Part shown: positions 8,391 to 46,718 of the stretch, in pieces
How positions within the stretch are numbered: the first letter of the stretch is position 1
Layout of the letters: each line of letters starts with the position of its first letter
Source: Tubulanus polymorphus
Lineage: Eukaryota > Animalia > Nemertea
DNA: 64,000 nucleotides
Direction: 5' to 3'
NCBI RefSeq assembly: GCF_964204645.1
Contig: NC_134028.1
Coordinates: 10,292,001 to 10,356,000, forward strand
Translations under genes and position numbers: made by a program
The notes under the pieces: model-generated
Seen by the model: the letters and a program-made list of their open reading frames with translations, nothing else
Told to the model about the DNA's origin: nothing
Databases searched by the model: none

Positions 8391-11300
8391 TTAATAACCA
8401 TAAGGTAATGTTTTTATACCATCATCTAAAATATGCCTTTTATCATCAAATGGATTCAAACTAGTTTTTTCAACTTCATCAATGTACATCTCGTGATCTT
8501 CTGATCTTAAACAATTCATTTTGTGTTTCATTACAATAATGTTATATAAACACTTTATATAATCTTGAAATTCTATATGTTTATCAACCACATGTTTTGT
8601 TATACCTTTTAACTTTTTAGCTCCATGATCTTTTGTTCTATAACTATACATTTTACTTCTTATCCCAACAAATTCAATCATTTCATCACCCCCTAATTCA
8701 TCTTTAAATTTACCAGGAATCTTTTTATTATCATTGCTAAATAGTTCATGATCTTTGGGATAATTGCTAAAATCAAAATGATGTTTTAATGTTTTTAAGT
8801 CTTTTGTTATGTCATTTGTCTTGATTTTTAGTATGTAGGCGTCCGTGATTTTTGGCTATTAATGGAAATCCACAGATGAATGTGCCATCTTCAGTTGATA
8901 AATTGCATGAATATAGAATTCATCATTATATTTAATTGCAAAATCTTTAGGGTTATTCACGAGTATTCTATAAACTGCTCACGATTTCATATGATCCACG
9001 ATTCTAAATGTTTTATGTGAATAAACTTCTTCACAGAATTTCTTAATTCCTTCTAATAATTTCAAGTCTTGATTGCATAAATACCAACAATATTGAGTGC
9101 GATTAACATATTTATACACACCTGCTGAACCATCGCCCATGAAAAATCCTTTGATAAAATATTCTTTTTCTTCTAATGTTTCAGGTTCTATATTATAAAT
9201 ATTATCAATAATTTCGTCGAATGACATATGATTCATTCTTTGGAAAAATCTTTTATGTAATGATTCATCTCCAATTTTTATATCAGTTGGTTTTATTTCA
9301 TCGCCATTTCGTTTAATTAAACTATGATCTTCTGTAACATCTACAAACCCTAATTTAGTTCTAACTCTATAGATTTTCTTATTTGTTTTATGCCTAATAA
9401 TATTCTTTAATTTTTTCCATCCATTTCTTGTCCAAACTACCATTAAACCATTTATTTGTATTAATTCTTTTTCACCATATGAAATATAAAGTTCATTTTG
9501 TTTTGGAATTATTTCTGAAATTCTTCTTATCACTATTTTATCATTACATTTTAATAATATTGGGGTGTCAGCTGTTACAGAATCAAAATATAATATTTCA
9601 ATATGCTTTTTCCCAAAAAGTGGTTGTAAAAAATTATAATAAAAACCATACATTAATAATTTTGATACTTCTAAAACAGTTGAACCAATGAATATAGGTT
9701 TATTAAATTTCATTGACGTTCTTTTTAATTTAACTGCTGTTAAATAATCTTCAAATCTTTTATTTCCTAAATGTCTAGGACTTGATTGAAAATGTCTTAA
9801 TCTTTCAGAATTATTTACTAATTCAATATCATTTCTATTTCTAATATTTTCACATTTTTTACCATAAAAACTATGATTCATTAATTTAAAGAAATCTTTT
9901 TCAAAATCTGTTTTTGATATGGTTCTCTGTTGAGTATTAACATCTATATATTTTTCTAACCACTTCGATTGATTAAATTCAATATATCTATGTACTTTCT
10001 TTAATTTCATTCCTTGTTTTAGATAAAATTTTAACATTCTATAATGAACAATATAATTGTATTTATTATTTTGAGTAAGTATTAATTTTTCTGTAAAAAC
10101 ATGATCTTTCGGTTTTATTTTCTTCTGGTATTCACTTAAATAACTATCATCTACAGTTAAATGTTCTCGGCAATAAGGTAAGTTTCTTGTTTTAAACTTT
10201 ATATTTTCAGGATATTCTAAATCAACTGCAAAGAAATAACCAATTGGTGCTTCATCTTTTAAACTCGCAATTGCGCTTTCCCAATCAGTTTTATCACCAT
10301 TTTCAACTTCTGTTAATATAAAATGTTTAAATGGTTGAGGTTGCATCATTGCCCAGCCATATAAATTATTGGCGTCAATATATAATAATTTATATTCATC
10401 ATTTGCTTTAAAATATCTATCTCCCATATCACCACTAATTCCACCTCTAATTGATTTTTCAAATAATAAAACCATTTCTGGTTCTTTTAATAAATTTAAT
10501 TCTACATTTGTGTATTTTAAACCACACTGCCAGGTTAAACCAGGACTTGAATAACAATAACAAGGGTCAACATTAAAATGGTTTAGATTAACTTCTCTAA
10601 ACTTTTCAAATATATCTGCCAATATCATAACATCTGATTTTAAATATAAATCAACTAATTCACCATGATTTTTCATATTAAAATGGTTCCAAATATTTAA
10701 TGTTCTATTAAACACTTCATCTTTCACATACTCCTCTTTTAATTGATCATAAAATTGATCTTTTAATAATTCTGTTACATTAAAATCATTGTGTGTTTTA
10801 TAAAATGAATAAGGAATTGCGCCTTTATATCTCAATAATTTAAAATCTTGTTCATTTGGATAATAATATGGAGTTATTATAAAATCATTATCAACTAAAC
10901 TTTTTGATAAATTATCTAATGAACTTGCCAGAAATCTATAAGAATCTAAAAATCTAATGTAACCAAATTGAAATGAAATATAATTTTCGGATGTTTAAGC
11001 TAATAGTTTAAAATCATATTTTCTTACATTTACGTCATGCATTATATTCTTTTATTTCTTGATTAATTGTACCCAATTTCCCTGATAATTGTTTTATAAA
11101 TAGATGGGTATCATAGCCTGATAAATTATGAAATAATATTGGAACGAAATTTACTTTTTTAGCTTGTAAATTAAAATCTTCATGAGCAGCTCCACGATAT
11201 TTTGAATTTAAATGATCATGATCTCTAACTTTTTTATCAAATGCATAAAAACGTTTTTCACAATAACAACAATGAGTTGCATAATTAAAATCAATTTCAT

Positions 11301-13145
11301 CTTCTTTTGTCATAACTATTCTTTTATTTTTGTTTAATAATTCTGCAAAATCACTTTCTAATTCAATTATTTTGTAAAAAAATCATTAACTACATTTTCA
11401 CCTCTAAAAGAAATATATTGACTCTCATATAATTCAGATAATTTGATTTTATGTAAATTCCATAAGCAGCAGCTCTTTGATGAACTTTTTTAATTGTATT
11501 TATAATTGGTGGGTCTTGAATTATATCTTCATTTAGTTCATTTCCTTTATCCATTGATTTTAATAATTGCTTTTTGTTATATATTTCTTTTCTATCTTGA
11601 TCAGTTAATTCTTTATTCAACGATTCAAAATCCCCATAAATTACAAATGGAACAATATTTTTAATTTATGATTCGTAAATTTCAAATTATAATCTTTTTC
11701 TGTTGGCATTATTAATTTACAAAAATCTTTTTTATCACATAATTCTTTATGTTTTTTATAATGTATTCTCAGTCATAAATTTAGATAAACATTTTCTACA
11801 TAGATAAATTTTATGATGATGATCACTTTCTGTTCTAAAGAATAAATCAATTTGTTTTAACCACATATAATGTTCATTTTCATCTTTTTTGTAATATGAC
11901 AAATCCATAGCATTTTCATCATCATAATATTCTGTTAAATATAAAGCTTCCAATGTATAATCTTTAATATTTTCACCTTTTGTCTTTGGTAATTGCATTA
12001 ATTCGAATACATTTATTTTTAAATTATTAACTTTTTCTATTTTAGGAATCATTTTTATAGTTACTGGATATTGATCAATTTTATATAATGTTTCATATTT
12101 CCGGTTATCTGTTATTCTACAAACATTTTCCTGTGTTGGATGTAAGCAACTAATAATTGACCATATAGAAAACATTTATTATCTTCATTTTGAATATTTA
12201 TTACTGCTTTTGTTGTAAATGGTAATTTAATATAAGACGATGCTTTAATATCCTCCTTTTCTGTTGTAAAGTTTGAATCATTTTTAAACATTTTATTACT
12301 TTTTGATGTTTTATTTCTTTTTTGTATTATAAACATTTAAATCTAAAAATATAATTTCATTCAATGTTAAACCAGACCCCTCAAAATATCTTTCTTCAAT
12401 GTGAACCATGCAGAACCCTCAAAATATCTTTCTTCTTTAAATTCATTAAATATTTTTCTTACTTCTCTTTTATTTGTGTTTTTGAAATTATTTCTTCAGA
12501 GAGTGTTTGAATATTATAATCCATTTTATCTTCTGACTTTAAAAAACTTACTTTCCCAGAGATACTAATTTTTGGATATTCAACATCTGTTATCAATTCT
12601 AGTATTTTTTCTATCATTTCATTAAATTTACTATAATCTATTGTTGTACCTTTAAAAAATCTAAATATAACAGCTGCAGGAACAATTTTACTACGTAATG
12701 TTTCTAATATTTCAATTGTATCTTTTATTTCAAGTGAATCAATATAATTTCTAACATTTTCCATGTAAGGTTTATTTGAAATGGATTTAGTTTTTTAAGT
12801 TGGTTTTTTTACTTGTTGAGGTTTATCATCGAAATAATCTTTTCCTAAAACATTATTACTCAAATTTTGAAGGTGTTTTTGTGATTCGAGATGTCTATTA
12901 TAATTCCTTTTTACTATAAATTCATTACAAACTTCACATTTTATTTCATTCACATTCATATTTTCTAATCGTTCTTTTCTTTCATTGGAATTTTCTGGAG
13001 TTTCAAAATCTATCACATTTTTTATATGATTTGCAGATTTTTCATGTCGTGATTTTTGGGATTTATCGATGTATTTTTTACAATATTGGCAATAATATTG
13101 ATTTTTATTGACATTATTGTTTTCTGTATGTTGTTCATTCTCCAT
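8391..13145 (-). pseudogene. polB: Protein-primed DNA polymerase B with intein (fragmented)
   Basis: Motifs YGDFES, FHNLSGYD, YIDANNLYGWAM, KLMNHSFYGK, YFD/TD, KKLKGI and PFDDKR; N-terminal Zn fingers and OTU-like region; many frameshifts. Confidence 0.95.
8848..9581 (-). mobile_element. Intein (Pol-c site) with partial LAGLIDADG homing endonuclease, decayed
   Basis: Inserted between YFD and TD. Block A SVTADTPI, block B VDVTEDHSL, LAGLIDADG FIKGFFMGDGSA, blocks F/G LSTEDGTFICGFPLIAKN followed by Thr. Absent from the pPolBs of B and C. Confidence 0.93.
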
Positions 13146-13230
13146 TTATAAGGAAAAAAAATTACTTGTGGTGATGAGTGTTGTCTCGACCTCTCGACCC
13201 CTTATCTGAAAGCCCACTTTTCCAATTACT

Positions 13231-13305
13231 GTCATGCATAGTTTTAGTCTCGCAAAGTGCATAGGTCTTCGGTCTTCGTTTTAGTAGTGCATAGTTTTAG
13301 TATCA
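13231..13305 (-). repeat. Copia 3' LTR remnant, cut by Polinton A
   Basis: Starts TGATAC immediately after the polypurine tract (13306-13320). Confidence 0.6.
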
Positions 13306-13472
13306 CCCCACCCCCCTTAAACTTATGTCGGTAACGTTACAGCGTATATAATGTAATGAAATCTGAGTTACAAAATGTTATTCTAAGATGTATATAATAA
13401 ACCATAAACTACTGCTATGAATGAGCAGTATGACCAATAGTAATCATAATATTCAAATTCAAATACAGTTAT

Positions 13473-14881
13473 CTATACGACAGACATTGCATCGAGAAAT
13501 TTTATCAATTTGGTTCTATTAACAGGCTTCGTAAAAAGATCAGCTAAATTTTCCTCTGAAGGAACGTATTTCAAGATGACCCCACCACTACGCACTTCGT
13601 CTCTGACAAAGTGAAAACGAATATCGATGTGTTTGGATCGTTGGTGATGTCCTGGGTTATTGGCCAATGCCAACGCACCTTGATTATCTCCATACAATAA
13701 GACTGACCTATTTTGACGAGTGTTTACAAACGATAAATTCCCGAGTAACTGACTCAGAAACTACGATTCCTGTACCGAGCCAGCGAGTGCCATAGACTCG
13801 GCCTCACACGTAGATCGGGCAACTGTTTGTTGTTTCCTGCTTTTCCAGGATACTGGCGCACTATTATCAACTAGACTGAAACAATAACCGGTTATACTGC
13901 GTCGATCAGGAGAAGCTCCCCAGTCGGCGTCGCAGAAACCAACTAGACTTATATCATCTTCTGATTTCGAATACCAACCCTTTATGTCTGGTTCCCTTCA
14001 AATAACGAAGAACATGTTTCGCTTTAATCAAACAACCGACAGTTGGGTTTGACATGTTCTGCGATAGTTTCGTTACTGGGAAGCTCAGATCCGGCCTCGT
14101 GCTAGTCGTGGTATAGATTAGGCTTCCAACAATCTCGCGATATTCTTTGATGTCATTACCCGTTAATAAAGGGTCTTCATCTTCTGTGATCTTGTAACCA
14201 CCTAATTCACAGGGGATGGACCTTGGCTTTGAGTTTTCCATCTGAAACCTTTTAAGAATCTTGTCAATATAGAGAGTTTGGTTCATCGAAAATGAATGTT
14301 GCTTGTGGGAAAACTCAATGCCTAGGAACCACGACAGGACTCCCAAGTCCTTCATTTTAAACCTATTGCTAAGGCTGGCTTTAATTTCCTCTAAAGCAAC
14401 CTGGCTATCAGCAGCCACAATTTTTTTTCCTCCACAACGGTTTTTGAATCAATAGTGTATCTGGTATAGACACAACTGTCTACTAACGACCTTTAAAAAC
14501 CAAGAATTCATATAATGTAGTGTTCCAATTGTGCTCACTCTGCTTCAGTCCGTACAAAGACTTTTCTAACTTATACACCAATCGTTCACCATTTTTGCCT
14601 TTGACCGTAAATCCCTCAGGTTGTTCCATGAACAACTCCTTGTCTATAGGGGCATTTAAGTAGGCCGACTTTACGTCCATTTGGTGGACTAATAGATTAT
14701 GTTGAACAGCCAGTTGTGCCAGCACTCTAACTGACGTTAAGCGGGCAGTGGGTGAAAAAGTTTCACCAAAGTCCACACCGGGTATCTGCGAATAGCCCTT
14801 GGCAACATACCGCACTTTGAACTGTTTGTGACCTTCTGCATCACTTTTTAGCGCGTAGACCCATCGACCCCCCACTATTTG
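13473..14881 (-). pseudogene. pol: Copia reverse transcriptase and RNase H
   Basis: QMDVKSAYLN, KSLYGLKQ, MKDLG, YREIVGSL, DNQGA, KHIDIRFHF and ADLFTK. Confidence 0.93.
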
Positions 14882-17536
14882 CGGTTCCTGAACTTCGCTG
14901 AAAAAGCTGAAACACTGAAACGCTGAATCGCTGAAATAAAAACGCTGAAATTTCAGGGAATTTCCGAAAAACGCCGAAATTTCAGGGAATTCCCGAAAAA
15001 CGCTGAAATCGTGCTAGGTACCGACAATACACGTTTTGAAATAATTTCCGGGCCGGTATTCGCTGCCGAGTCCTGAACCGTCTTTTAGTCTCCACCTTCG
15101 GTTACAGAGACATGCATGGGCAGTATGTGTGGAGTATACTTCTAGAGGGCCACTTGTTGAACAAATTAATTCGCTTGAAATCCGGATTTTTAATGCATAC
15201 AGGCAGCATGATGAGGAAAACCCATTCACAAACCGTGCAAGCCAACTTAAACACTATGCTCAATATTCCAAGAATATGGGTTACTTCTATCGTTCATGTA
15301 TAAAACAGGATTATAAGCAACTTTTCTTTTGTCAACACGTTGATGGGCGACGGACTATGGTATTCTCTGAAGGAGGTAAATTAAATTTGACAGCTAATTA
15401 TATAAATGATGCAGCTTTTGGACAAAAGGGATCTAACTAAATTTCTTTTTAATTCACCGTGGAATGGAATGGATTGACGCCAATGACATGCAGTAGGCCC
15501 CTACTTATAGGTCATACTAATTAGCGTCAACCAATTAATCTAAATCGGGCAAACCATTCAACAACTGTAATTTATTTGCTGTGTTGTGATAATAATAGGT
15601 TGTTTTTTTTTAAATGACATACCAACTGTTAGAAAAATGTACCGATTCTTATTTTTAGACTACTACGGTATCTATAAAAGGAGGAGTCATAGATAAAGTT
15701 GATTTGCTCAGCTGGACACACTTCTTGTCAAGTACATCATCTCAAGTATTGGGTGTTTTGTAAGTTTGATTTCAGTATTTATTTACTAAGTGCTGTTCCC
15801 TCGGACCTCAGTGCTTTCAAACTAGGCCCACCCCATAGGCTATATCTCCAGAGTGTGTTAGCCACTATTCTTTTATTTCCTACTTTAAATGCACTTTTTT
15901 TCTATTTTTAGTCTCGGGCTAAGAATGTGCAAATTTGAGATACTGAGAAATCAGATGGCACTAGTTAACTTGAACTGCGAAATTTGCAGCAGGATAGCTG
16001 AACGACACAATTTTTAAAAACAAAATGGCTATTCGAATGCTATTTCAGTAATAACTTGATTCAACCAGAGAGAAATAAGTCAATTGGGGATGTACAGTAC
16101 ACCCACTTTACTTCCCCGTTTTCCTGGTACCAAATTTTTTATCTTAAGCTAAGCAATATTCTAAGGTATGCTAGTGAATTTCATTAGAATATAAAGCAAT
16201 GGAACCAGAATTCAAGCCCGAGTTAAGCGAACTATTGATTCTGATATAATGTAAGAACTGATTTCTTTTGTGTATTCTTATAATGTGTTAAGTATTATTT
16301 TAAGCTGTTAAATAATATAATTAGACAAACGTCAAATTATTGGATCTTTCTTGTTGACTCGTTTAATTTTGTGAGTTTAGAGTTCCAGTCAATCCACAAT
16401 GTGCAGTGCCTAGCCTTCATCTAGTACTAAAGCCAAGCCTGTGTATGGGAAAACGTTGTTCGACTCTCATAAGCCAGACAAATAAAAACTTGCAATACAT
16501 TGCAGATAGTAGTCTCCAGCAAGTAGACAGAGAAAGTAAACCAGGTTTTACCCCGTACCCTACCCGGCATCTTCACCTGTCAAGGGATTCGAACCCACTA
16601 CACTAAAGCTGTTCTCCGAACCGCTTGACCTCGAGTCGTTACTAGCCGACCAGAATCAGGTCGGGCCAATCACAGCGCTTGTTACAAACGACATTTGGCA
16701 TCTATGGAATTTCCCGGTAAATGGACCAATCAGCGAACACGTAGCGAAAACGGAAGTATTGTCGCGTGTTGATATATGACGTCATTCGCTAAAACGCCGG
16801 TAATGAAATCGCGCGTCGTGGGGGCAGGTGGAAGCGAGTTTGGGAGCGATACTGGTCTCCTGGCAAGCGAGGATGCCTACCCGGGAACGAAAGACACTCC
16901 AAGGCTCCTTCCTTGAAGAGATTGTAGAAATATGGCACCCAATCGTAGTAATGCTAAGTACAGTATACTATGACGGTTGAACCTTTATTCACACCAAAAT
17001 AGAATCAAAGTAGTCATAAGTTCCATGATAGCACTTAATTTGGGTTATCAGGTTCAGCCTTACTAGCTGTACTTTCATTCAGCTACTACTTTTGTATGAG
17101 ACTTGGCAATGATAAGTTGGAAGAAATCACCAAATATAAGAAAAAATATTGAGAATTAATATTACTGTAATTAAGAATTTATTCAAATGAAGTGATAATT
17201 TCATTGTTAGATCGTACCGGTATATGCGCATAAAACAAAAAACACATCTAACAATCCACGCAATCCGCAATCGATCAAGTCGAACATGACGACGACCTCA
17301 AGGCATGTCTCTGTAACCGAAGGTAGAGTCTAAAAGACGGTTCAGGACTCGGCAGCGGACACCGGCCCGGAAAGAATTTCAAAACGTGTATTGTCGGTAC
17401 CTAGCACGATTTCAGCGTTTTTCGGGAATTCCCTGAAATTTCGGCGTTTTTCGGAAATTCCCTGAAATTGCAGCGTTTTTATTTCAGCGTTTCAGCTTTT
17501 CAGTGTTTCAGCTCTTTCAGCGAAGTTCAGGAACCG
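14882..17536. mobile_element. Non-autonomous MULE/Foldback-like DNA transposon
   Basis: ~230-bp TIRs (CGGTTCCTGAA...) with GCTGAAA subrepeats; 9-bp TSD CACTATTTG at 14873-14881 and 17537-17545. Confidence 0.88.
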
Positions 17537-19260
17537 CACTATTTGCCGACCATGTGGTGCCGGCGTTAACGTAAACGTTTTGTTTTCTTCCAGTGCCAGA
17601 AATTCATTTTCCATGGCTTTCTGCCACGCTGGAGCATTTTCAGAAGACATAGCTTCATCGTAAGAATAAGGAACATCAATTTGGGACATCGCGTAAATGA
17701 AATCAATAGTACTACATATATTCACATAATCATTATGATCGTTTTCTGTGACGAAATCTTCAAGATAGCTTGGTCTTGAACTCATCCTCTTGGGATATCT
17801 ACGATTCTGGATTTCGATATTTTCATTGCTGGATGATTTTTCAGCGTTAACTGGGGTGTTACCTATGTTTGGTGTGTTAGGTACACTCTCGATCTGACCG
17901 TTTGAGTTTTGATCCCCTTTCTCATTCTCTATGGGTATATCTTCTATATAATCGGTTGGCATAATATCTACTCTATCGTCAAACTTTACACACCTTACTT
18001 TTTTGACATTTCCGTCACTAGGGTAATAAACTAAAAACGCCGGACTCGATCGGTCATACCCGATAAATATACCCTGATCACATCTTGCATCAAGTTTGCT
18101 TTTATCCTGCAGGTACGCATAGCATGTACAACCAAAAATGTGCATATGGCTAAGGTTACGTTTTCGACCTGTAAGCACCTCGTAGGTTGTTTTATTCAAT
18201 CGTTTATTCAAACAACGATTTCGGATATAACACGATGCTAGGACTGTGTAAGACCACAATTGCTTGGGTAAACGAGATTCCAACAATAAGCAGCGTGCCA
18301 TTTCAAATAACGACCGCCACGCCCTTTCTGCTGTTCCATTCTGGTGAGGCGAATGTGGCGAGGATTTTTCATGCCTGATTTTGTTTTCAATAAGGAACGA
18401 TTCAAAATCTTTTGAAATAAATTCACCACCATTGTCTGAACGAACACTTTTCACCACGCCAAGCTAACCATATGGTGATATATCAGCCAGAAAGGTCTTA
18501 AAGGCCTGTAACGCCTCACTCTTTTGTTTAATGAAGTATACTGACAATATGTTTGAGTAATCGTCAACACAGACAAGTGCATATCTAGACCCGTCTCTAG
18601 CTGGAGGGTGAATGGGACCCGCTAAGTCACAATGGACCATCTGAAATGGGACCTTAGCTCGTTCGTCTGGTTCCCTACTTCTATTTTGGGTCATTTTACC
18701 TAAAATACAATCTTTACACGTTATATCTTTCCCAGAACCTGAGAATTTCATACCCGTTACAGCTATTTGCAATTTGAGTATATCCTGAACATTGCAGTGA
18801 CCCAAAATTCTATGCCACACAAGTAAACTGTGTTCATTCTGATCAGAGGAAATAGTATTACAAGCGTACATATAGTACAATCGACCACGTTTCGTAAAAT
18901 TAAATACAGTACCATTAGAAGCTGAAAGGCTACCAGAATTAGATTTAAACTGTTCATGTGCACCATTGGCCTCAATGGCCGCCTGAACTGAGAAGATGTT
19001 TTGCTTAAATGTAGGAATATATAAAACATTTTTTAAGACAACATTACATGTTCTACCCATTGAGTCGGTAAGCTGCACCCTTGCGTCTCCTCTACATTTT
19101 TCATTTGCGATCCATCTGCAAGCTCAATGAAATGATCCTCAGCGTTGAAACTTTTATCAAACGACACAAATTTTGATTCGTCATTTATTATGTGGCTCGT
19201 TGCCCCACAATCCACCAACAAACTGTTAACGTTGAGTATGGAGCTGGCAGAATCAACGGT
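17537..19260 (-). pseudogene. pol: Copia protease, GAG-pre-integrase and integrase
   Basis: LVDCGATSHI, WHRILGH..C..C, VHCDLAGP, VRSDNGGEF, QNGTAER and SKLDAR. Confidence 0.92.
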
Positions 19261-19301
19261 TATTCTGAAGTAGAAGTTGTCCCCGTCATTAACGGTGTCG
19301 G

Positions 19302-19913
19302 TTACACTTTATCGCGAGTTTTACGGCAGTATTTAGTGTCATGCGTTCTACATTTACAATTTTCACACCAACGCGAATTTTCCCTACGCGAATTTTCTCT
19401 ACAGTTCGCCACGATGTGTCCTGGTTTATTGCATCGGAAACACACCAACGATTGGCTATCCCCAGGTCTTACGCGACCGCGGGATGAACGATGCGCTGAG
19501 TTAACTAACAAAACACGATCTTCTTCAAAATTGTCCGATTGGGACTTATTGGTCTCTTCGTAATTACGCAATGCGACTTTGAAGTCGGTAAAAGACACGG
19601 TCTGTTCTCTTTGATTGATGGCGGTACAGAACGCTTTGAATTCGACGGGCAAGCCTTTAATTATCATCGCCACCAGCAAGCTATCGCTGATATTCTCCTC
19701 GGCCGATTTAAGAAATGCCGCAGCAGTTTCTTCCCGTGAAATGTAATCGGTTAAATTTTCATCGATACTTTTCTTCAGCGAGGTTAGCTCGTGATACAAA
19801 CTAATTATCTTCGGCTTACCTTTAGACAGATAGTGATGTCTCAGTATTGTTAGTCTTTTTGCCCCATCGTCCTTTGCCTCTCTAATGATCAAAGTCAAAG
19901 AACGGTCGTCAAG
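19302..19913 (-). pseudogene. gag: Copia gag, C-terminal part with zinc knuckle
   Basis: CFRCNKPGHIVANC knuckle; the N-terminal part lies at 22179-22369. Confidence 0.88.
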
Positions 19914-22178
19914 CGGTTCCTGAAATTCGCTGAAAAAGCTGAAATACTGAAACGCTGAAATGCCGGAAAGAAAACGCTGAAATTTCAGGGAATTTCCGAA
20001 AAAAGCTGAAATTTCAGGGAATTCACGAAAAACGCTGAAATCGTGCTAGGAACCGACAATACACGTTTTCAATTTTTTTTCCGGGCCGGGACCGCTTCCG
20101 AGTCCTGAACCTTTGCTTTAGTCTCTACCTAATTTTTGGTTATAGAGACATGCATAAACAGTATGTATGGAGAATCAAAACCCCACCACAACCACCAAGC
20201 AAACTTTAAACACTATGCTGAATATTCCAAGAATGTGGTTTACTTCTACAAGACGAAAAAATCTCATTTGAGCATTTCAATGTATATAAAATATGTATGT
20301 ATATAAAATACATGTATGATTATGATGTTAGAACCACTTTTCTTTTGTCAACACGTCAAACATGACTATGGGCGACTGTGGTATTCTCTGTTGGAGACTT
20401 GAGGTAAGTTAAATTTGATAGCTAGTTATAATGATGATGCGGCTTTTGGACAAAAGAGATTTTACTTAATTTCTTTTTAATTCATTGTGCGCATGGAATG
20501 GATTTAACAATTGCGAATAATTTATTTGCTGTGGTGAGAAAATCATCAGGTTTTTTAAAGAAATGACATAGCATCTGTTAGAAAAATGTAACAATTCCTA
20601 TTTTTAGACTATCTATAAAAGGAGGAATCATGGACCAAGTTGATTTGCTAAGATGGACATACAGATACCGAGAAAAGACTTCTTGTAGCAGCAGTGATTA
20701 TATTTCATTCATAAGTCAACAGCTGATGTACAGTAGTACCTCGCTTTACTTGGTTTTCCTGGGACCAAATTTGTAGCCTTAAAAGCTAAGCGATATTCCG
20801 AGGTAACGAAGGGGATTTCAATAGAATACGAAGCAATGGAACCAGAATTCAAGCCCAAGCTAAGCGAATCTGTGGCTTTAACGCTTGATTCGGATAAATT
20901 CAGAACTGATTTCTTTTGTGTATAATGTATAATCTATATCTCTTAAGCTGTTAATTAATATAGTTAGATAAACGTTCAATTATTGGATCTTTCTTGTTGA
21001 CTCGTTTCATTTTGAGGGTTTAGAGTTCCAGTGCCTAGCCTTCATCTACACAAAAAAATAAAGCCAAGCCTGTGTATGTGAAAATGTTGTTCGACTCTCA
21101 TAGGCCAGACCAATCGAGGTATGAATGCAGATGGTAGTCTCCAGCAACTTGAGAATGTAAACCAAGTTTTGACCTCTACCCGGGGACGACCCTTTAAGGC
21201 CTCTTTGTAGAAAATGTAGAAATATGAAACCAAATCTAAGCTATGCAAAGTACAATGACAATTGAACCTTTATTTACGAATTTCAATGACACCGAAAATA
21301 AAATCGAAATAATCAAATCTCGATGCTAGCACTTATTATGGGTTGTCAGGTTCAGCCTAACTGTACTTTCATTCAACTACTTCTTGTATGAAACGTGGAA
21401 ATGAGAAGTTGCAAGGAATAACCAAACAATAATAAAAACAATTGAGAATTAGAATTACTGTAGTTAAGAATTTATTCAAATGAAGTGAAAACTTCATTGT
21501 TAGCTCATACGGGTACATACATGTACATAAAACAATAACAACAATTTATATCATGATGCACAGACAAATGAAAGTAAAATATTATTTATTTATTTTCCAT
21601 TTTGGGGAAGCATGATGGTAGTTTTTGGAACTGATGCAGTTTTGATGAACTAATTTTTGGCTCGTAAGTATCATGCTATACAGTGTGTCCTGAACAATTA
21701 TTGTTCCTCCTGATTCAACTGAAGATTCCGACTCATGTCAAGGAAATGAGGTCCTCCATCAATCGAACAAAAGTTGAGCTCAGACCTCTCTCTCATTTGC
21801 CGAAATTATAGCAACATTTATGGGGGACCTCTTCTTCACTCTAGCTACTATGGTCCGGCCATACGCATCTTCAAGCTACTAACCTATTAATTGTGGTCTG
21901 ATGCCAGTTGAAAATGAAATGTTGAAGGGAGCCGAAGACAATGACCTTGTAGGCGTATCTCTATAACCCGAAAAATTCGGTAAAGACTAAAGCACGGTTT
22001 AGGACCCGGCAGCAGACACCGGGCCAGGAAAAACGTGTATCGTCGGTTCCTCGCACGATTTCAGCGTTTTTCGGGAATTCCCTGAAATTTCAGCGTTTTT
22101 CTGGAATTCCCTGCAAATCTCAGTGTTTTATTTTCAGCGTTTCAGTGTTTCAGCTTTTTCAGCGAATTTCAGGAACCG
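19914..22178. mobile_element. Second MULE/Foldback-like element, same family
   Basis: Same CGGTTCCTGAA TIRs and diverged shared interior; 9-bp TSD GTCGTCAAG at 19905-19913 and 22179-22187. Confidence 0.88.
21776..21905 (-). mobile_element. 130-bp deletion derivative of the 2413-3391 family
   Basis: Same two termini in reverse orientation; 4-bp TSD AGTT at 21772-21775 and 21906-21909. Confidence 0.7.
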
Positions 22179-22369
22179 GTCGTCAAGGCATATGCCTCGG
22201 CTTTCTTGCTCGCTAGCTCATCGCCTTGTAGGGCGGAAGTTCCGGTTATAACCTCGTGCAATTTTTGTATCTTCATGTAGCCCATGAATTTAACTTCCCA
22301 AAGTTCGTATTTTCTGTCATCGCCATTGAACATCGGAGCGCGCGTCCTGGGCCCATAACCTGTTGCCAT
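22179..22369 (-). pseudogene. gag: Copia gag N-terminus
   Basis: MATGYGP...FNGDDRKYELWEVKFMGYM; the ATG lies in the LTR end and the ORF reads through the PBS. Confidence 0.8.
22347..22360 (-). promoter_or_regulatory. Copia primer-binding site (internal tRNA-iMet type)
   Basis: GGTTATGGGCCCAG directly after the LTR-terminal CA. Confidence 0.85.
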
Positions 22370-22597
22370 CTTTAGGTCACGGTCTCGGGATGATGACGGA
22401 TTACTCAAATATACGAGAGGAACAAAGACACCAACACAATAACGACTGTGTCCATTGAGAGAGAGAACAAAGAGAGTTTTTATTTTACCAATATAGCGTT
22501 AGGTGGCAGCACTTCTCATAGTACCATCTTTACATATACAGTGTTGCACAAAACAATACATGGACAATAATACAGAAACATGAGTTTATATCATAAC

Positions 22598-23003
22598 AGA
22601 TAAAACCCACAATAAAAAGAAAACACTATCTTGTAGCTTAACGTTTCAACTCAATTCTATGAGCCATTTTCAAAAACTGATTTATTGTACAGTTAGAACA
22701 ATACAAAATATAGCAACAAGGTAACTAAGTGATCCCTATAGCTGTTAGTATATAGTGACTAAGGAGTTTATTTTGGGGGAGAAACCTAAATTGGAATTTA
22801 CTGTGAAGTCAGAGTTTTTTTTAGAATAATAGCTGACTCAAGGATTCGACATTTATATAAATCAGAACAAGGTTATATCAACTGGCTAGAGGAGAAGTCA
22901 AAAATATGGCCAGTTTCAAATGTGTGTGAAAAAATAGCACTTTGTGGTTTGGCATTTACGACGTCTTTTTGGTGTTCTTTTTTACGTATATTCAATGATC
23001 GTC
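22598..23003 (-). mobile_element. Penelope-like element copy 1: 3' pLTR and GIY-YIG C-terminus
   Basis: Reverse complement of ~61316-61720; continues at 41419 after Polinton B. Confidence 0.9.
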
Positions 23004-23433
23004 AGTAATAGGGATAATAGGGGTTCATACCAAAGGTCGAAAGGTCGAGCTCATAAAAAATGAAAAAATAAATTCTCGCACACTCGAATTTATTTTTTCA
23101 TTTTTTATGAGCTCGACCTTTCAACCTTTGATATGAACCCCTATTATCCATATTACTCTTAAAATATTCATATATATGAACATAATTTACATGAATTTCA
23201 TATAAGTAATTGGAAATTGTGGGTTTCAAGCCAGAGGTCGGAGGTCGAGCTATTATAGATACATAGATAGATATATTTTAAACATATTTCAATATTTATA
23301 TTTGTATGAGTTAGATTTTTAAACATTAAAAGTGTCAGTAAAGCGTGATTGAAATAATTCATATTCATATATATGAATAACATATAAATGAATAACTTCT
23401 AAAATCAATTTAGTAAAAAAATTTGATATTAAA
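23004..23433 (+). repeat. Left TIR of B, beginning with a 154-bp palindrome
   Basis: Reverse complement of 40672-41418 apart from the microsatellite; arms 23004-23075 and 23086-23157. Confidence 0.92.
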
Positions 23434-24102
23434 ATGGAACCAGAACAACCACAAACTATCAATATTACAAATAACACTGGTGTCATAAATATATATTATA
23501 AGAAGTGTTCTAAATGTGAATTAGATAAATTAGCTATAACAGAATTTAATAAGCGTAAGATTAGCAAAAATGGTTTTCAATATTGCTGTAAAACTTGTAT
23601 TAAACTATATACCAAGCAATATCGACAAGATAATAGAGAAGCTTATAATGATTACATAACAAAATATATGAGAGAAAGATATCAAACAGATCTAAATTTT
23701 AAAATGAAACAATGTTTGAGAACTAGATTATCAAAATTATTCAGTAAAGAAACGCATTCAGAAACACTATCTAATTTGTTGGGTTATACAGATGAATTTT
23801 TCAAATCATGGATAATATATCAGTTTAATGATGAAATGAATATTAATAATTATGGGGATTATTTTCATATTGATCATGTGTTGCCTATTTCTAAATTTAA
23901 CATGAATGATGAATATGATAAAAAGTTAATTTGGAATTAGAAGAATTTAAGACCTCTTGAAAAGAAGGAAAATATGATTAAACATGATAAACTAGATTTA
24001 CAGTTATATTTAGAACAGTTAACAAAGGCAAAGAAATTCATTGAATTATGGAACAATGATTCGAATAATGAAAAATATATTGAATCTTTATTGAGTGGTT
24101 AA
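23434..24102 (+). pseudogene. HNH-type endonuclease with N-terminal Zn ribbon (one in-frame stop)
   Basis: CSKC..CKTC; FHIDHVLP...N*KNLRPL..EN..K. The TAG at 23938 is TGG in the C copy. Confidence 0.75.
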
Positions 24103-24370
24103 AGAATGATAGAATTCAAATAAAGAATATTAAAAAAACAATAACTTCAACTAGCCACTATTTCTATTTTAATTTTTTTTTTAAATCTATTATTTCTTTT
24201 CAAAAAGGGAATACTTTATATAACAAATAAAAAATACTAAAAAAACAATAACTAATACTAAAATCTTTAACTTTAACTAACCTAGTCAATTTAGTATCAA
24301 TAATTTAACTAACTAGCATCATTTTATAATACTTATAATATTTTTTTTCACCTTTTTTTCTCTAATATAA

Positions 24371-24952
24371 ATGTCAAAGAAATCTAGTAAGAATAGTATT
24401 AATATTGAAAAAACATTAGATGATTTAGGCATTAGTGATAATAAGGATATTCCAACCAAAATTGAAAATAATATTGATTGTAATATATGTATTGATTTTG
24501 AATACTATTTATATTGTGAACACCATCTAGAATTATTAATTGCTGGTGGAAAATCTAAAGAGTTTTTAAATAGAATTGTTACTTTTCAAGAATTAGATGC
24601 CATGAAACCAGATAAAGTAATAAAACATTTCAAAATATATGAAGAAGCTAGATTAGCCCGAATAAATGATTATATTTCAGATGGTATTGTCAAATGTTAT
24701 TCAAAATTATGTAACCGGTTAATACCAATTGATGATGAAAATAAATTATATGGTGATTTAAAAAATGACTACTTAGTTATGACAGAATTACAAAAATGGG
24801 TTGGATACGCTTCATTTCAATTAGGTGGAATAATGACATTAATTTCTACTGGAGTTATAACATTTTCTAACATTAAACCTATAGTATGTAAAGATAAAAG
24901 TAATTCAGATAATATTGAATCAGAACAAAAATTAACTAAAATAAATGAGTGA
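24371..24952 (+). CDS. Conserved hypothetical Polinton protein
   Basis: Intact 193-aa ORF; homologue at 48586-49155. Confidence 0.75.
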   Translation: MSKKSSKNSINIEKTLDDLGISDNKDIPTKIENNIDCNICIDFEYYLYCEHHLELLIAGGKSKEFLNRIVTFQELDAMKPDKVIKHFKIYEEARLARINDYISDGIVKCYSKLCNRLIPIDDENKLYGDLKNDYLVMTELQKWVGYASFQLGGIMTLISTGVITFSNIKPIVCKDKSNSDNIESEQKLTKINE

Positions 24953-25280
24953 TAGCGTTAAGAAGAAGCCTAGATCCGAGAAACAAATTAAATGGGCAAG
25001 AGAATTAGGTAAAAGATCTGCAGAATTAAAAACAGCTAAGAAAAAGAAATTAATCCATCTAAGAAATCCATCTAATTCATCTAATAGTGGAAGAAATAAT
25101 AAATTATATATTACAATTGGATTAGTAACAGTTATTATATTTTCTGGTGTAATATATAAATATAAGTATAAATCTGATTATAACAACAATGATTCCAATG
25201 ATAATAAACCTATTATACCAGAAAATAAGTCAAATCATAAAGTCATTGAAACTAAATCTAAATTATTATTAAGTGATTAA
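24945..25280 (+). CDS. Small basic protein with single TM
   Basis: Lys/Arg-rich N-terminus, TM LYITIGLVTVIIFSGVIY; homologue at ~49148-49498. Confidence 0.7.
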   Translation: MSDSVKKKPRSEKQIKWARELGKRSAELKTAKKKKLIHLRNPSNSSNSGRNNKLYITIGLVTVIIFSGVIYKYKYKSDYNNNDSNDNKPIIPENKSNHKVIETKSKLLLSD

Positions 25281-25286
25281 AATAAA

Positions 25287-26381
25287 ATGAAAAAAGAACA
25301 ATATTTAAGAGAGTTATATTACAACCCAGAAAGTGAAGTATCATATTCTAGTGTTTCAGAATTATGGGATAAAATTAAATCTGATAAATAAAATGGTGAT
25401 ATAAAATATAGTGAACTAAGATTATGGTTACAAAATCAACCAACATATCATATCCATAAGAAAATGGATAAAACTTATTTAACGAGAAAAGTTATGGTTT
25501 CATATATCGATCAACAATGGCAAGCAGATTTAATTGATATGAAGAACTTGGAAGAATACAACAAAGGATATTTCTGGATATTAAATGTTATAGACATATT
25601 CAGTAGATACGCATGGTCAATTCCAATCAAAAATAAAACTGGTATAGAAGTGACAAATGCTTTCAAATCAATATTTAAAGAAGCTATTCCAGGTAAGATA
25701 CAATTTGATGAAGGTAAGGAATTTTATAACAAACATTTTAAAAAACTATTATCTGATAACGATGTATATTATTTTTCAACACATTCAGATAAAAAAAGCA
25801 TCTATTATAGAAAGGTTTTAATAAAACATTGAAAACTAGAATGTGGAAATATTTTACTGATAATGAAACATATAAATATATCGATATATTAGATGATTTA
25901 GTGAAAGGTTATAATAATTCTAAACATAGTTCTATAAATATGAAACCTATACAAGCTAGAAAAGAAGATAATTCAGAAATAGTTTGGAATAACTTATATG
26001 GTGCGTTTGTTACACATGATTTCGGAGAACCTAAATTTAAAATAGGACAACATGTAAGAATATCTAAATATAGAAAAACATTTTATAAAGGTTATACTCC
26101 AAACTTTACTGAAGAAATATTCAAGATTAAAAAGATAATACTAAATAAACCTTTTTGTTTATAAATCAGAAGATTTAAAAGATGATGAAATATTAGGTTA
26201 TTTCTATGAACAAGAATTATCGCTTGTACCAAATCCAGATGATTTAGAATACAAAATAGAAAAAGTATTGAAAACAAAAACTCTTAAAGGAAAAAAGTAT
26301 TCTTTGGTGAAATATAAAGGATATGATGATAAATTTAATGAATGGATTTTATCTAGTAAAATTAAAAGAATAAATGAATAA
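25287..26381 (+). pseudogene. int: Retroviral-like (rve) integrase with C-terminal chromodomain, frameshifted
   Basis: WQADLIDM, IDIFSRYAW, IQFDEGKEF, YNNSKHSSI; tail YKIEKVL..LVKYKGY..NEWI. Confidence 0.92.
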
Positions 26382-26972
26382 AGATTTATTTATATTTGAA
26401 CCGCATGATATGTTAGTTACTGGAGTAACCAACTGTGGTAAAACGAATTTCATATTAGACTTGTTAGAAACTATTTATAAGAATCATTTGGGTTATATAA
26501 TATTATTCTGTCCTACTTATGAAATGAATAAAACATATAATAGAGATATATTTAAGATAAAACAGTTTATTATATTAGATCCTAAAACAGTAAAAGAAAA
26601 TTTAGATAATTGTATTAAAATAGCAATTGATATCTATAAAGGATCAAATACATTATTCATTATATAGATGATTGTGCAAATTTACATGATTCAAAAGTTA
26701 GAGAAAGTGAGTTATGTTTGGGATATTTTGGGATAACAACATGGGTTTTAAATCAAAAATATATTCCAATTGTTAAAGATTTTGGGGAGAATATAAGATT
26801 TTTAGTCTTATTTTATAACAAAGATAGAAAATCTATGCAACAATCATTAGAAGAAAATCAAATTATACCTACTGAATTACATGATGAATATATGAATAAA
26901 TTAAAGAATAATAAAAGTTCAAAATTATTACTGAGGCTTCAATTTCCATATGAATATAAATTTATAAAATAA
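26374..26972 (+). pseudogene. A32/FtsK-like DNA packaging ATPase
   Basis: Walker A GVTNCGKT and Walker B FII(D)D; homologue at 50526-51139 retains GRHFG. Confidence 0.88.
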
Positions 26973-26989
26973 AATTTGAAATATTATAG

Positions 26990-27385
26990 AAACTATTTAT
27001 ACATCTATGTACTAGACGTACGAGTAAGAAAGTAAGATTCTTACCAAGAAAGTAAGAATTCTTGGATTCTTACTCTAGTACATAGATATATAAATTAGTT
27101 TTATAATAATTATTCTAATAATTATTCTAATACATTTATAAAAATGAATAAATTATATGTTTTCACTTAATAAAAAAAAAATAGATTATATTATAACTAT
27201 TTCTATACTTAGATTAATAATTTACATTTTTAATTTATAAAATAAATATGTGTATATCTATGTACGAGACGTACGAGTAAGAAAGTAAGATTCTTACCTA
27301 GATTCTTAAATTCTTATATTCTTACCAAGATTCTTACTTTCTTACTCGTACGTCTAGTACATAGATATATAAATAGTTTTATAAT
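26990..27385. terminator. Two related palindromes at the convergence of the two gene arms (putative terminators)
   Basis: TATATCTATGTACGAGACGTACGAGTAAGAAAGTAAGA...TCTTACTTTCTTACTCGTACGTCTAGTACATAGATATA at ~27253-27369, with a related copy at ~26990-27103. The function is inferred. Confidence 0.45.
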
Positions 27386-27388
27386 AAT

Positions 27389-28509: not shown

Positions 28510-28541
28510 TTATTATAGATTTTTTTATTAAACTTAAAATT

Positions 28542-29781: not shown

Positions 29782-29801
29782 TTATTTAACAAAAAAATTA
29801 A

Positions 29802-31512: not shown

Positions 31513-31528
31513 TTATATAATAAAAAAA

Positions 31529-32836: not shown

Positions 32837-32852
32837 TTATATAATAAAAAAA

Positions 32853-33287: not shown

Positions 33288-33303
33288 TTATTTAGAAAAG
33301 AAA

Positions 33304-34312: not shown

Positions 34313-34329
34313 TTATATAGTGAAAAAAA

Positions 34330-35091: not shown

Positions 35092-35108
35092 TTATTTTAC
35101 ATATTTTC

Positions 35109-35462: not shown

Positions 35463-35491
35463 TTATAATTCATATTTTTATTAAAATTTGA

Positions 35492-38400
35492 TTAACACGT
35501 TATAATCCTGTTCATTATTTCCTTCTCTTTTGTTTCGTCTCTTTTAAATCTTTAGTATTCATCTAAATTACAACCATAAGCAACTGTATGAATTCCATCA
35601 TCTAAACTATATCTTTTATCATCGAATGGGTTTAGACTTATCTTCTCTATCTCTTCAATAAACATTTCATGATCTTCAGATCTTAAACATCTCATCTTAT
35701 GTTTTCTAACTTCTTCTTTGAATATACAATTGATGTAATCTTTGAAATGAATATTCTTTTCTACGACACTTTTGGTAATTCCTTTTAACTTTTTAGCTTC
35801 ATGTTCTTTAGTTTTATATGAATACATTTTAGATCTAATACCAATGAATTCAATCATTTCATCACCTCCTAATTCATCCTTAAACTTCCCGGGAACTTTT
35901 TTATTATCATTGTTAAATAATTCATGATTTTTAGGATTACTAAAATTAAAATGATGTTTTAATGTTTTTAAATCATCAGTTATGTTATTAGTTTTTATCT
36001 TTAATATGTAAGAATCAGAATTTCTTCACCTCCTAAGTCATCTTTGAATTTACCAGGCACCTTTTTATTATCATTGCTAAACAGTTCATTATCTTTAGGA
36101 TAATTACTGAAATTGAAATGATGTTTTAATGTTTTTTAATCATCTGTTATGTTATTAGTTTTTATCTTTAATATGTAACTGTCAGTATCAAAATATAAGA
36201 TTTCTATATGTTTTTCTCCAAAATAAGGTTGTAATACGTTATAGTAAAATTTATACATTAATAACTTTGATAATTCTAAAACTGAAGCACCAACGTAAAT
36301 TGGTTTATTAAATTTCATTGAAGTTCTTCTCATTTTAACAGCGGCTAAACTTTCATCAAATATTTTGTTACCCATAAATTTAGGATATGTTTGTAAATGT
36401 CAATTCTTTTACCATTACTAACTAACTCAATATCATTTCTATTTCTAATATTTTCACAAGTCTTACCATAGAATGCATTATTCATTAACTTGAAGAAATC
36501 TTTTTCGAAATCAGTTTTAGCTTTAGTTCTCTGTTTGGTGTTAAAATCTATATATTTTTCTAACCATTTAGATTGACTAAATGAAATATATCTATGTACT
36601 TTTTTTAGGATCATTCCTTGTTTTAGATAAAACTTTAACATTCTATAATGTACTACATAATTATATTTATCTTCTTGAGTTACCATTAACTTTTCTGTAT
36701 GAATATGATTTTCGGGTTTAATTCTTTTTTGATAATTTGATAATTCTTCATGTGTTACAGTTTTATGTTCTGGACTGTAAGCTAGATTTCTAGATTTGAA
36801 TTTAATATGTTCAGGATATTCCAAGTCTACAACAAAGAAGTAACCAGTATCTGAATCATCTGCAATATCTAGAATTCTTTTCTTCCAATCAAATTTATCA
36901 TTATTTTCATGTTGTAAAACTTCACTTATTTCAAATACTCTATAAGGTTGTGGTTCCATCATTGCCCATCCATAAAGATTATTTACAACTATATATAATA
37001 ATTTATATCGAGGATTATCATTTACATTGAAATATCTATCGCCTAATACACCTGAAACTCCTCCTCTTATAGATTTTTCAAATAATAATAATTGATCTAT
37101 ATTTGTTAACAAATCCATTTGTATATCTGTAAATTTTAATCCACAATCCCAAGTTAATCCTGGTGATGAATAACAATGGCAAGGATCAATATTAAAATAT
37201 TTTAGATTTACATCTCTAAACCTTTCAAATATATCCGATAATAATAATACACCAGATTTTAAATATAAATCTACTAATTGTCCATGATTTGTTATTTTAA
37301 AATGATTCCAAATATTTAATGTTCTATTATAGAATTCATCTTTAACATATTCATTTTTTAATTCATCATAAAACTGTTCTTTTAATAATTCAGTTATATT
37401 GAAATCATTATGTGATTTATAAAATGAATATGGAATTGTGCCTTTATATCTCATTAATTGAAAATCATCATTATTTGGATAGTGTTGCTTTAATATTCTT
37501 AATTCATCATCAACTAATGATTCTGATAAATTATCTAATGAACTACCTAAAAATCTATATGAATCTATAAATCTTAGACACCCAAATTGGAATGATATAT
37601 AATTCTCAGATGATTTAGCTAACATTTTAAATTTATATGTTGGTATTTTATCTTTTGATTTATATGCTCTTTGCTCTTTCTATTTATGACATAGCTTTCA
37701 ATTATGAAATATTACTGGAACATCAAAGTTAATTTTCTTAGCTTGTAAGTTACAATTCTCATGCGCTGCGCCTCTAAACTTTCCATTCAAATGATCATGG
37801 TCTCTTACTTTTTTATCTTTTAGATTAAATGTCTTTTCACAATAATAACATTTATCAGCAAACTCAAATTCTTCTTTATCTTCTGTCATTATAATTTCTT
37901 TATTTGTATCTAATACTTTACTAAATTCGATTTCATACTCAATTAATAGGTCACAAAAATGATTGATAACATTTTCATTTCTATAATTATAATATTCACT
38001 TTTAATTAGTTCTGGATAATCAGATTTTATATATAACCCGAAAGCTGCAGCTGATTGATGAATCTTTTTAATAGTATTTGTTATTAGAGGATCTGAATAA
38101 TCAATTATATCATTTTCATTAGAATTTAATTTCTTTCTTTTATAGTATAGTTCTTTTCAATCTTGATCAGTTAATTCTTTATTTAATGATTCAAAATCTC
38201 CATATATTACAAATGGTATTTTATTCTTGTAATCATATTTTTTTAATTCTAATATTTTATCCTTTTCATTTGGTAAAACTATCTTACAATAATCATGATT
38301 ATCACATAATTGTTTAAGATTTAATAATGCACTTTCATTACTGAATTTAGTTATACATTTTCTACATAGATATATTTGATTTTGGTTATTTTCTGATTTA

Positions 38401-42738: not shown

Positions 42739-42779
42739 AAATATGTAAAATCAATTTTAATAAAAAATTGGATATTAAA

Positions 42780-45700: not shown

Positions 45701-46718
45701 AATATAATTATGTAGTACATTATAGAATTTTAAAATTCTATTTGAATCAAGGAATGGTTCTAAAAAAAGTACATAGATATATTTCATTCAGTCAATCTAA
45801 ATTGTTAGAAAAATATATAGATTTTAACACCAAACAGAGAACTAAAGCTAAAACTGATTTCGAAAAAGATTTCTTCAAGTTAATGAATAATGCATTCTAT
45901 GGTAAGACTTGTGAAAATATTAGAAATAGAAATGATATTGAGTTAGTCAGTAATGGTAAGAGAATTAGGCATTTACAAACATATCCTAAAATATATTTAT
46001 TGGTAACAAAATATTTGATAACAATTTAGCTGCAGTTAAAATGAGGAGAACTTCTATGAAATTTAATAAACCAATTTATGTTGGTGCTTCAGTTTTAGAA
46101 ATATCAAAATTATTAATGTATGAATTTTACTAAAACGTATTACAACCTCATTTTGGAGAAAAGCATATTGAAATCTTATATTTTGATACTGACAGTTACA
46201 TATTAAAGATAAATACTAATAACATAACAGATGATTAAAAAACATTAAAACATCATTTCAATTTCAGTAATTATCCTAAAGATAATGAACTGTTTAGCAA
46301 TGATAATAAAAAGGTGCCTGGTAAATTCAAAGATGACTTAGGAGGTGAAGAAATGATAGAGTTCATTGGAATTCGATCTAAAATGTATAGTTATAGAACT
46401 AAGGAACATGAAGCCAAAAAGTTAAAAGGAATTACCAAAAGCGTAGTAGAAAAGAATATTCATTTCAAAGATTACATCAATTGCATATTGAATGAAGAAG
46501 TTAGAAAACGTAAGATGAAATGTTTAAGATCTGAAGATCACGAGATGTTTATTGAAGAGATAGAGAAGGTTAGTTTAAATATTTTCGATGATAAAAGATA
46601 TGTTTTAGATGATGGAATTCATACAGTTGCTTATGGTTGCAATTTAGAAGAATATCTAAAATTTAAAAGAGAAGAAACAAAAGAGAATGAGATTATGAAC
46701 AGGAATCTAGCGTGTTAA
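42780..46718 (+). pseudogene. polB: Protein-primed DNA polymerase B (intein-less, fragmented)
   Basis: All PolB motifs, including an uninterrupted YFDTDS at ~46178-46196. Confidence 0.95.

Follow-up and report, generated by a model that had tools for sequence, protein, structure and literature searches.

The Pol-c intein allele (site III) and the Mimivirus PolB intein, an intein of the canonical asparagine type, are described in the sections of PMC549080 available to us. A 2018 eukaryote-wide survey (PMC5784728) names, in the part available, no viruses other than giant-virus families and unclassified ones as carriers of DNA-polymerase inteins, and its supplement gives zero inteins for Metazoa; PMC8529194 likewise states that metazoan genomes lack them. 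Nuclear scaffolds of the algae Klebsormidium and Tetrabaena and of a labyrinthulid have been reported to carry inteins in viral-like DNA polymerases, in a paper whose accessible text, together with two supplements, never mentions Polintons, protein-primed polymerases or Metazoa (PMC10710043). Inside the protein-primed polymerase (pPolB) of Polintons, inserted HNH and VSR nuclease domains have been described (bioRxiv 2023.08.22.554363 and PMC11071308, both in excerpt), and PMC11071308 offers the speculation that they “result from intein invasions”. The word “intein” does not occur in the available portions of the nematode Polinton paper (bioRxiv 2023.08.22.554363) or the adintovirus paper (PMC8502044), and a search of the open literature, which left subscription journals, InBase, Repbase and bioRxiv supplements outside its scope, brought up no description of a Hint-domain intein within the pPolB of a Polinton. 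We herein describe a decayed insert of this kind in the pPolB of a Polinton, element A, within a window of 64,000 nucleotides (contig NC_134028.1, positions 10,292,001 to 10,356,000; “the window” denotes this whole stretch), and argue that it belongs to an intein clade specific to Polintons.

The insert, 734 bp in length, lies exactly at YFD/TD of the element A polymerase (a slash marks the insertion point), where the minus-strand pPolB frame reads ...HIEILYFD/SVTADTP... and the first insert nucleotide is 9581. The nucleotide match between element A and its neighbours B and C ends at 8837 and resumes at 9578, and both neighbours read directly as uninterrupted YFDTDS, as the original prediction had claimed. 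Ser1 and the block-B TxxH (SVTADTP and TEDH) occur in the window copy, whose minus-strand frame holds DVTEDHSL, and in all aligned relatives. A terminal Asn followed by Thr+1 is present in the window, out of frame; the penultimate His is absent, its place being taken by Lys, and the relatives vary between HN, KN and SN ends. The non-canonical KN end proposed earlier for the Mimivirus intein is tentative. The curated profile TIGR01445 (intein_Nterm) matched the open part with 32.4 bits over a cut-off of 24.5 (E 1.4e-7), and the Pfam matches of the broken copy stayed below cut-off (Intein_splicing E 0.0027, LAGLIDADG_3 E 0.031). To judge from its sequence, 8848..9581 is a decayed Hint plus double-LAGLIDADG intein of the Pol-c allele type, which is what had been proposed from the insertion at YxD/TDS, Ser1, TxxH, the terminal Asn and Thr+1. 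A Hedgehog or bacterial intein-like Hint domain was considered and ruled out: the insert interrupts a polymerase and holds LAGLIDADG, and the listed homologs carry PolB or topoisomerase II families. Outside Polintons the closest relatives are inteins of RNA-primed viral PolBs, again as predicted, and not Hedgehog or other Hint domains.

The extent of the decay can be read against the best database relative, P0001, a protein of 1693 amino acids (aa) with an intact intein of 354 aa (64% identity to the window intein, E 2.8e-76). One frame, from 9581 to about 8901, aligns with residues 1 to about 226 of the P0001 intein; the alignment then jumps to about the last 19-22 residues in another frame (8904-8848), and a further frame break near 8847 parts the terminal Asn from the TDAYILK C-extein. 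Thus the window intein retains the first LAGLIDADG motif only and, with its stop and frame breaks, is left without an in-frame precursor. This agrees with the lesions named earlier, namely a TGA at 8979, a deletion near 8905 that removed the second LAGLIDADG motif and a junction break at 8847, with the deletion break now placed at 8901..8904 (Table 1). The window copy is dead for splicing and homing alike, and because the N-extein carries further frameshifts, the element A copy is dead regardless of the intein.

Table 1. Coordinates of the intein insert, its host gene and the other features in the window.
Feature	Positions	Strand	Remarks
Decayed Pol-c-type intein insert, motif C of element A pPolB	8848..9581	-	734 bp
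Open 200-aa N-terminal intein part: block A (Ser1, SVTADTP), block B (TEDH), linker, first endonuclease half	8982..9581	-	TIGR01445 above cut-off; 64% to P0001; PI-PkoII E 5.9e-7
First LAGLIDADG motif FIKGFFMGDG	9129..9158	-	Catalytic Asp kept
Premature stop TGA	8979..8981	-	Ends open intein part
Internal deletion break and frame change	8901..8904	-	About 110 codons gone, including second LAGLIDADG motif
C-terminal Hint remnant, blocks F/G, ...GFPLIAKN	8848..8904	-	Out of frame with both neighbours
C-extein, starting at Thr+1 (TDAYILK)	8394..8846	-	78% to intein-less P0387
N-extein, likely Beta-type pPolB of element A	9582..13145	-	PF03175 E 3e-13; several frameshifts upstream of 10994 (against P0387)
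Empty site YFD/TDS, element B	36178..36195	-	Y at 36195
Empty site YFD/TDS, element C	46179..46196	+	Y at 46179
Element B	23004-41418		AGT termini; 6-bp target duplication ATCGTC on both sides
Element C	41929-59010		
Terminal palindromes/termini of B and C	23004-23157, 39906-40099, 41262-41418, 41929-42078, 58897-59010		
Capsid candidate	28666-29781		PF16903 E 0.0065, below cut-off
Free-standing ORF with HNH-like motif, element B	23392-23940		
Free-standing ORF with HNH-like motif, element C	46916-47530		
Copia nest	13230-22200		Outside right end of element A
Repeat related to the Penelope-like element	22588-23003		Precedes B
Penelope-like element	59060-61760		Between C and D; reverse transcriptase (RT) and C-terminal GIY-YIG

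Intact relatives of the window intein are available. With its open part as the query, 221 proteins were obtained among 903 candidates, and ten of the twelve top matches were Polinton-type pPolB pieces. The intact P0001 intein as the query gave 1302 proteins among 2604; five of the 120 matches listed were full-length pPolBs with the intein (P0001, P0006, P0154, P0164 and P0165), and the remainder carried PF00136 or topoisomerase II. A polymerase-wide query found an intein start in five of the 120 pPolBs listed, so that carriers are a minority. Each of the five full-length carriers has an in-frame precursor with both exteins. The complete Polinton inteins all measure 337-354 aa and end in G-F-P-L-[IL]-[IV]-[HKS]-N/TDS; wherever a Polinton carrier has both ends, the terminal Asn and the +1 residue are in frame, two LAGLIDADG motifs with both catalytic Asp are kept in 10/10 full-length Polinton inteins aligned, and PF14528 scored above cut-off in all five full-length carriers scanned. 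For the natural relative P0004, folding from a 96-row alignment gave a predicted local distance difference test (pLDDT) score of 93, and a single-sequence attempt gave 31. The P0004 model matches PI-TliVMA best in the PDB (E 1.3e-16); it also matches PI-PkoII, PI-PfuI and PI-SceI, as well as giant-virus PolB inteins, the best viral ones being phycodnavirus, pandoravirus and megavirus PolBs. The modelled structure, which is that of P0004 and not of the window copy, is a Hint plus endonuclease fold.

Searches for loci of the Polinton intein type with flanking DNA gave none: the window intein gave only loci at 28-59% (best segment), of which the one examined was of giant-virus type, queries with P0001, P0154 and P0004 gave no matches, and the extein query gave relatives at 35-39% only. 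The same intein family was also seen in viral topoisomerase II after ...DQD or DAD, at a second D/S site (P0008, P0060, P0062, P0065, P0067). Some Polinton-type pPolBs lie on contigs binned as bacterial metagenome-assembled genomes (L055-L058, P0392), which are likely eukaryotic or viral contamination of those bins.

Evidence on the state of other copies comes from raw genomic reads of one organism (run X6, of which 12% was read, at 85% likeness). Reads cover the intein to a depth of about 150-260x and the flanks to about 270-545x, and 64 reads skip the insert altogether. At the stop (position 8980) another letter stands in 146 of 163 reads, the junction frame break is not shared by 67 of 88, and loose ends at the deletion (8902/8903) occur in 142 and 80 reads; at several sites just 1-7 reads carry the window letter. 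Most intein-bearing copies in the X6 genome are therefore without the window lesions, as read site by site in short reads rather than end to end along one copy, and empty sites coexist with them. If the genome exceeds 100 Mb, the depth would correspond to at least about ten copies. It had been suggested that intein-plus and intein-minus alleles coexist at one locus. That claim has to be abandoned for A and B/C, which are different Polinton subfamilies with about 70-77% nucleotide identity in the polymerase gene and different termini (A and element D have a terminus in common, unlike that of B/C, and are 90.6% identical over 2.2 kb); empty sites nonetheless occur among similar reads.

The relationships of these inteins were examined in trees built from 175 inteins of 320-400 aa, of which 67 remained after near-duplicate removal, plus the open part of the window copy. 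In FastTree all 11 Polinton rows fall in one clade (100), whose sister (97) consists of giant-virus-type and T4-like phage PolB inteins with a one-residue-short block G; IQ-TREE with 42 rows gave the Polinton clade 100/98. The label “NCLDV” (nucleocytoplasmic large DNA virus) was assigned by exclusion, with checks for L001 (capsid gene) and by fold matches only, and the phage label rests on phrog_262 (E 1e-77 to 1e-163, versus 1e-32 to 1e-53 in four controls). POL2 in the tree files denotes the window class and POL1 denotes P0006. The window pPolB matches PF03175 weakly (49.9 bits, cut-off 25.8) and is likely of the “Beta” class of PMC8502044 (as far as its available text defines it), and P0006, at 111 bits, is likely “Alpha”, both assignments being made by PF03175 score. 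RNA-primed PolBs hold 164 of the 175 inteins, and those of Polintons form a single sub-branch, from which we infer that the direction was into Polintons. Between the Mimivirus 18-mer (PMC549080) and the empty Polinton site, 8 of 18 nucleotides differ, which makes one-step homing from a Mimivirus-like virus unlikely, and the first jump into Polintons was probably rare or stepwise. By sequence relationship, Polinton inteins are kin to those that giant viruses and T4-like phages carry in RNA-primed PolBs, and either group may have been the donor. Of the earlier proposal that the intein moved between an RNA-primed NCLDV PolB and a protein-primed PolB, the relation to RNA-primed viral PolB inteins stands, and the naming of NCLDV as the donor becomes one possibility of several, T4-like phage PolBs having the same subfamily and the sister group being unstable. 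A search of named phages returned one weak match (27%). The T4-like phage-type PolBs P0019, P0023, P0027 and P0257 have an intein subfamily shared with some giant viruses and Polintons, linking bacterial and eukaryotic viruses.

Several observations bear on how the intein has been maintained. For Beta-type carriers intein and extein identities of pairs run together (58/64, 67/66, 54/58 and 80/77%; 40-48/41-52% for distant pairs), and separate intein and extein trees return the same three carrier groups. Since intein identity tracks extein identity and the groups recur, the intein is old in this lineage. A single recent capture followed by decay, as first envisaged, does not survive these results: the Polinton inteins are one old clade whose divergence matches that of the polymerases, and most intein-bearing read copies lack the window breaks. 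Carriers are patchily distributed on the extein tree (17 of 109 rows, at least 11-13 changes, in a count that left out 29 proteins without a recognised site), with 13 observed presence changes versus a shuffled mean of 16.2 and 6 of 500 shuffles as low. Across 15 pairs from 6 lineages, the endonuclease region is 49.5% identical, versus 51.8 and 51.6% for the splicing regions and 26.3% for the linker.

Signs of transfer between copies are found at three levels. The carrier P0138 and the non-carrier P0141 have exteins identical at 571/573 and 169/169 residues, so that, besides the intein, only 2 of 742 aligned residues set them apart. The P0154 cluster has 136 members (15 of them listed, on contigs of 57 kb to 1 Mb); here seven carriers and five non-carriers split at 10 of 1191 extein columns, all within -7 to +44 of the site, a footprint such as a homing conversion tract would leave. 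Finally, the extein of P0006 aligns to the others over 29-126 aa only (21-44%), and its intein is 42-51% identical to theirs and nests beside the window/P0001 pair (96/83). Because the P0006 extein barely aligns while its intein nests among Polinton inteins, a transfer between pPolB classes is probable. Empty copies with a changed catalytic motif (DCDS, DTDA or DTDG) make up 27/40 in the carrier-richest clade versus 1/10, 0/24 and 0/31 elsewhere, a count from which 9 proteins were dropped, in which the 0/31 group is weakly supported and many rows may stem from one or two genomes; it is suggestive of escape from cutting. The clade with most carriers, P0418-P0506, holds many intein-less pPolBs with DCDS, DTDA or DTDG in place of DTDS.

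On this basis a cycle can be proposed. In an unbroken copy, the pPolB precursor would release the intein by splicing and thereby regain the catalytic YxDTD, as predicted from Ser1, TxxH, the terminal Asn and Thr+1; by analogy with class 1 inteins, an N-O shift at Ser1 would be followed by attack of Thr+1 and cyclisation of Asn. The endonuclease is predicted to cut the empty YxD/TDS of a related element in the same nucleus or cell, and repair off the intein-bearing copy would copy in the intein with a short flank, as the -7 to +44 footprint suggests. Homing could take place between chromosomal copies or between co-replicating elements, and one transfer would have reached the other pPolB class (P0006). 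Intein-free copies persist beside carriers, some with altered sites. Splicing and site-specific cleavage are predictions from conservation and footprint.

We consider it quite probable that the Polinton inteins are a specific clade that likely goes back to a single ancient entry into pPolBs from an RNA-primed viral PolB and likely persists by homing among Polinton copies, the window copy being a decayed member. An assembly chimera or a contamination fusing a giant-virus gene to a Polinton is scarcely credible, with nothing found in its favour: it is ruled out by contigs of two samples that bridge the N-junction (X1 9448-9852; X4 9379-9644 and 9535-9725), raw reads cover the stretch throughout, and the proteins of JGI, ENA, Logan and NCBI include intact full-length pPolB-intein fusions. 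A single recent capture by element A alone, from a giant virus infecting the same cell and with decay since then, could appeal to giant-virus PolB inteins at 37-48% identity and to the best viral contig match, L001, which holds an NCLDV capsid gene and an intein-bearing PolB; yet the Polinton inteins are closer, the intein GC content is near that of the extein (0.27 versus 0.24) and the reads hold many intein copies, so that we regard such a capture as very improbable. Somewhat better placed, and still improbable, is a passenger acquired once and inherited with the polymerase, lost repeatedly by precise deletion or by recombination with empty copies, its endonuclease no longer homing. The congruent trees of Beta-type carriers favour it, as does the number of presence changes, which lies only little below the shuffled mean and does not tell gain from loss. 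An idle homing endonuclease is expected to decay into a mini-intein, whereas here the endonuclease is conserved like the splicing domain, with both Asp in every intein aligned; moreover, the near-identical plus/minus pairs, the site-centred footprint and the Alpha-type carrier P0006 need transfer.

The homing clade has several points to its debit all the same. Intein-extein congruence also agrees with vertical descent and repeated loss, and many copies may have inherited the -7 to +44 footprint from one recombination event. Most carriers score below cut-off on Pfam Intein_splicing; on TIGR01445, P0001 and P0006 narrowly miss the cut-off and P0164 has no match. IQ-TREE did not recover the FastTree sister (81/92, one long branch), a grouping which the approximately unbiased test does not reject (p 0.43), and the trees lack an archaeal outgroup, so that direction rests on distribution. 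As to the host, Atlas neighbours of the Copia gag are plant clusters (a lead only). The same intein system in a non-animal host (protist, fungus or alga), which would extend the inteins of endogenous viral elements of algae and labyrinthulids, could also draw on the lack of any host gene within the window and on Beta-class PolB sequences in fungal and unicellular datasets (PMC8502044, available part). It is set against by the Penelope-like element, in which the RT is followed at the C-terminus by VYEIPCGKCDKFYIGETG, a GIY-YIG whose two motifs have two Cys between them, a type restricted to animals apart from one conifer transfer according to the accessible text of PMC8557442; by the Atlas neighbours of one carrier pPolB, most commonly Arthropoda and Mollusca (scores <0.9, a lead only); and by one intein-less pPolB match named from a sponge (P0452). 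We judge a non-animal host unlikely, though less so than the passenger. The Penelope-like element is the main reason to take the host as likely an animal; an invertebrate is likely. The system as a whole is a branch of the Pol-c intein peculiar to Polintons, likely maintained by homing, and the genome that holds it is likely that of an animal. A bolder form of the homing account, in which animal genomes have active homing inteins that cycle over long periods among endogenous Polintons in invertebrate germlines, cross between Alpha and Beta classes and drive empty copies to DCDS, DTDA or DTDG escape, is tentative and falls somewhat short of an even chance.

AT-rich Polintons, Copia elements and one Penelope-like element lie nested together in the window. 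Element A runs off the window; its sole visible end is at 13229, and its integrase and ATPase are not visible. The window pPolB separately carries an EndoVII/HNH-like domain. Element B has terminal inverted repeats flanked by its target duplication (Table 1). Element C has an rve+chromo integrase and an A32 packaging ATPase (Pox_A32), and a capsid candidate (Table 1) matches the double jelly-roll major capsid protein family PF16903 below cut-off. No adenain-like protease was matched in any of the four elements by a six-frame motif scan, nor by Pfam in the open reading frames (ORFs) scanned; the elements may be protease-less Polintons, or the motif scan may have missed it. On the Penelope-like element, Pfam gave a weak RT match and no GIY-YIG match, and its ORFs had no match in the PDB; scans of the window for tRNA and Rfam families gave no match either.

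The termini of B and C start with a near-perfect palindrome of about 150-190 nucleotides (AGTAATAGGG...CCCTATTACT), which could form a large hairpin; the A/D terminus is different and does not match. B and C have a common gene order, with pPolB at the right end on the minus strand in B and at the left end on the plus strand in C, which suggests that they are isomers rearranged via terminal repeats. Each also has a free-standing ORF near the terminus or the polymerase, without a Pfam match above noise, in which IDHVLP is presumably an HNH-like motif. A nest of Copia long terminal repeat retrotransposons lies outside the right end of element A, and a repeat related to the Penelope-like element precedes B.

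The Polinton inteins extend the Pol-c allele from RNA-primed to protein-primed polymerases. If the reading proposed here is true, they are an exception to the absence of inteins from metazoans and show a route to it, with splicing and a homing endonuclease at work in animal cells. They may also mark where genes have passed between Polintons and either giant viruses or phages, and between the two classes of Polinton polymerase. Homing requires that two elements meet in one cell; plus/minus pairs and conversion tracts would therefore report directly on co-replication and recombination of Polintons, and would inform the question whether these are active viruses.

Compared with described systems, the inteins of Mimivirus and other Nucleocytoviricota PolBs have in common with the Polinton inteins the YxD/TDS site, Ser1, the block-B Thr-His, the terminal Asn, Thr+1, a length of about 340-360 aa and two LAGLIDADG motifs. 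They sit in RNA-primed PolB (PF00136), whereas the Polinton inteins sit in protein-primed PolB (PF03175) of an integrating 15-20 kb element, form a clade of their own with a G-F-P-L block G, and belong to elements present in many chromosomal copies, some carrying the intein and others not. The T4-like phage PolB inteins (P0019, P0023, P0257) have the one-residue-short block G (G-[FST]-P-L) that is common to Polinton inteins and one giant-virus subgroup, but belong to another host polymerase class, likely with bacterial hosts. In the Klebsormidium, Tetrabaena and labyrinthulid case an intein likewise enters a eukaryotic nuclear genome inside an endogenous viral polymerase; there the hosts are algae and a labyrinthulid, while the Polinton inteins show evidence of continued spread among repeats. 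The HNH and VSR insertions, too, place a nuclease domain inside a Polinton pPolB; no Hint domain is described for them, whereas the element A insert combines Hint and LAGLIDADG at the catalytic motif C.

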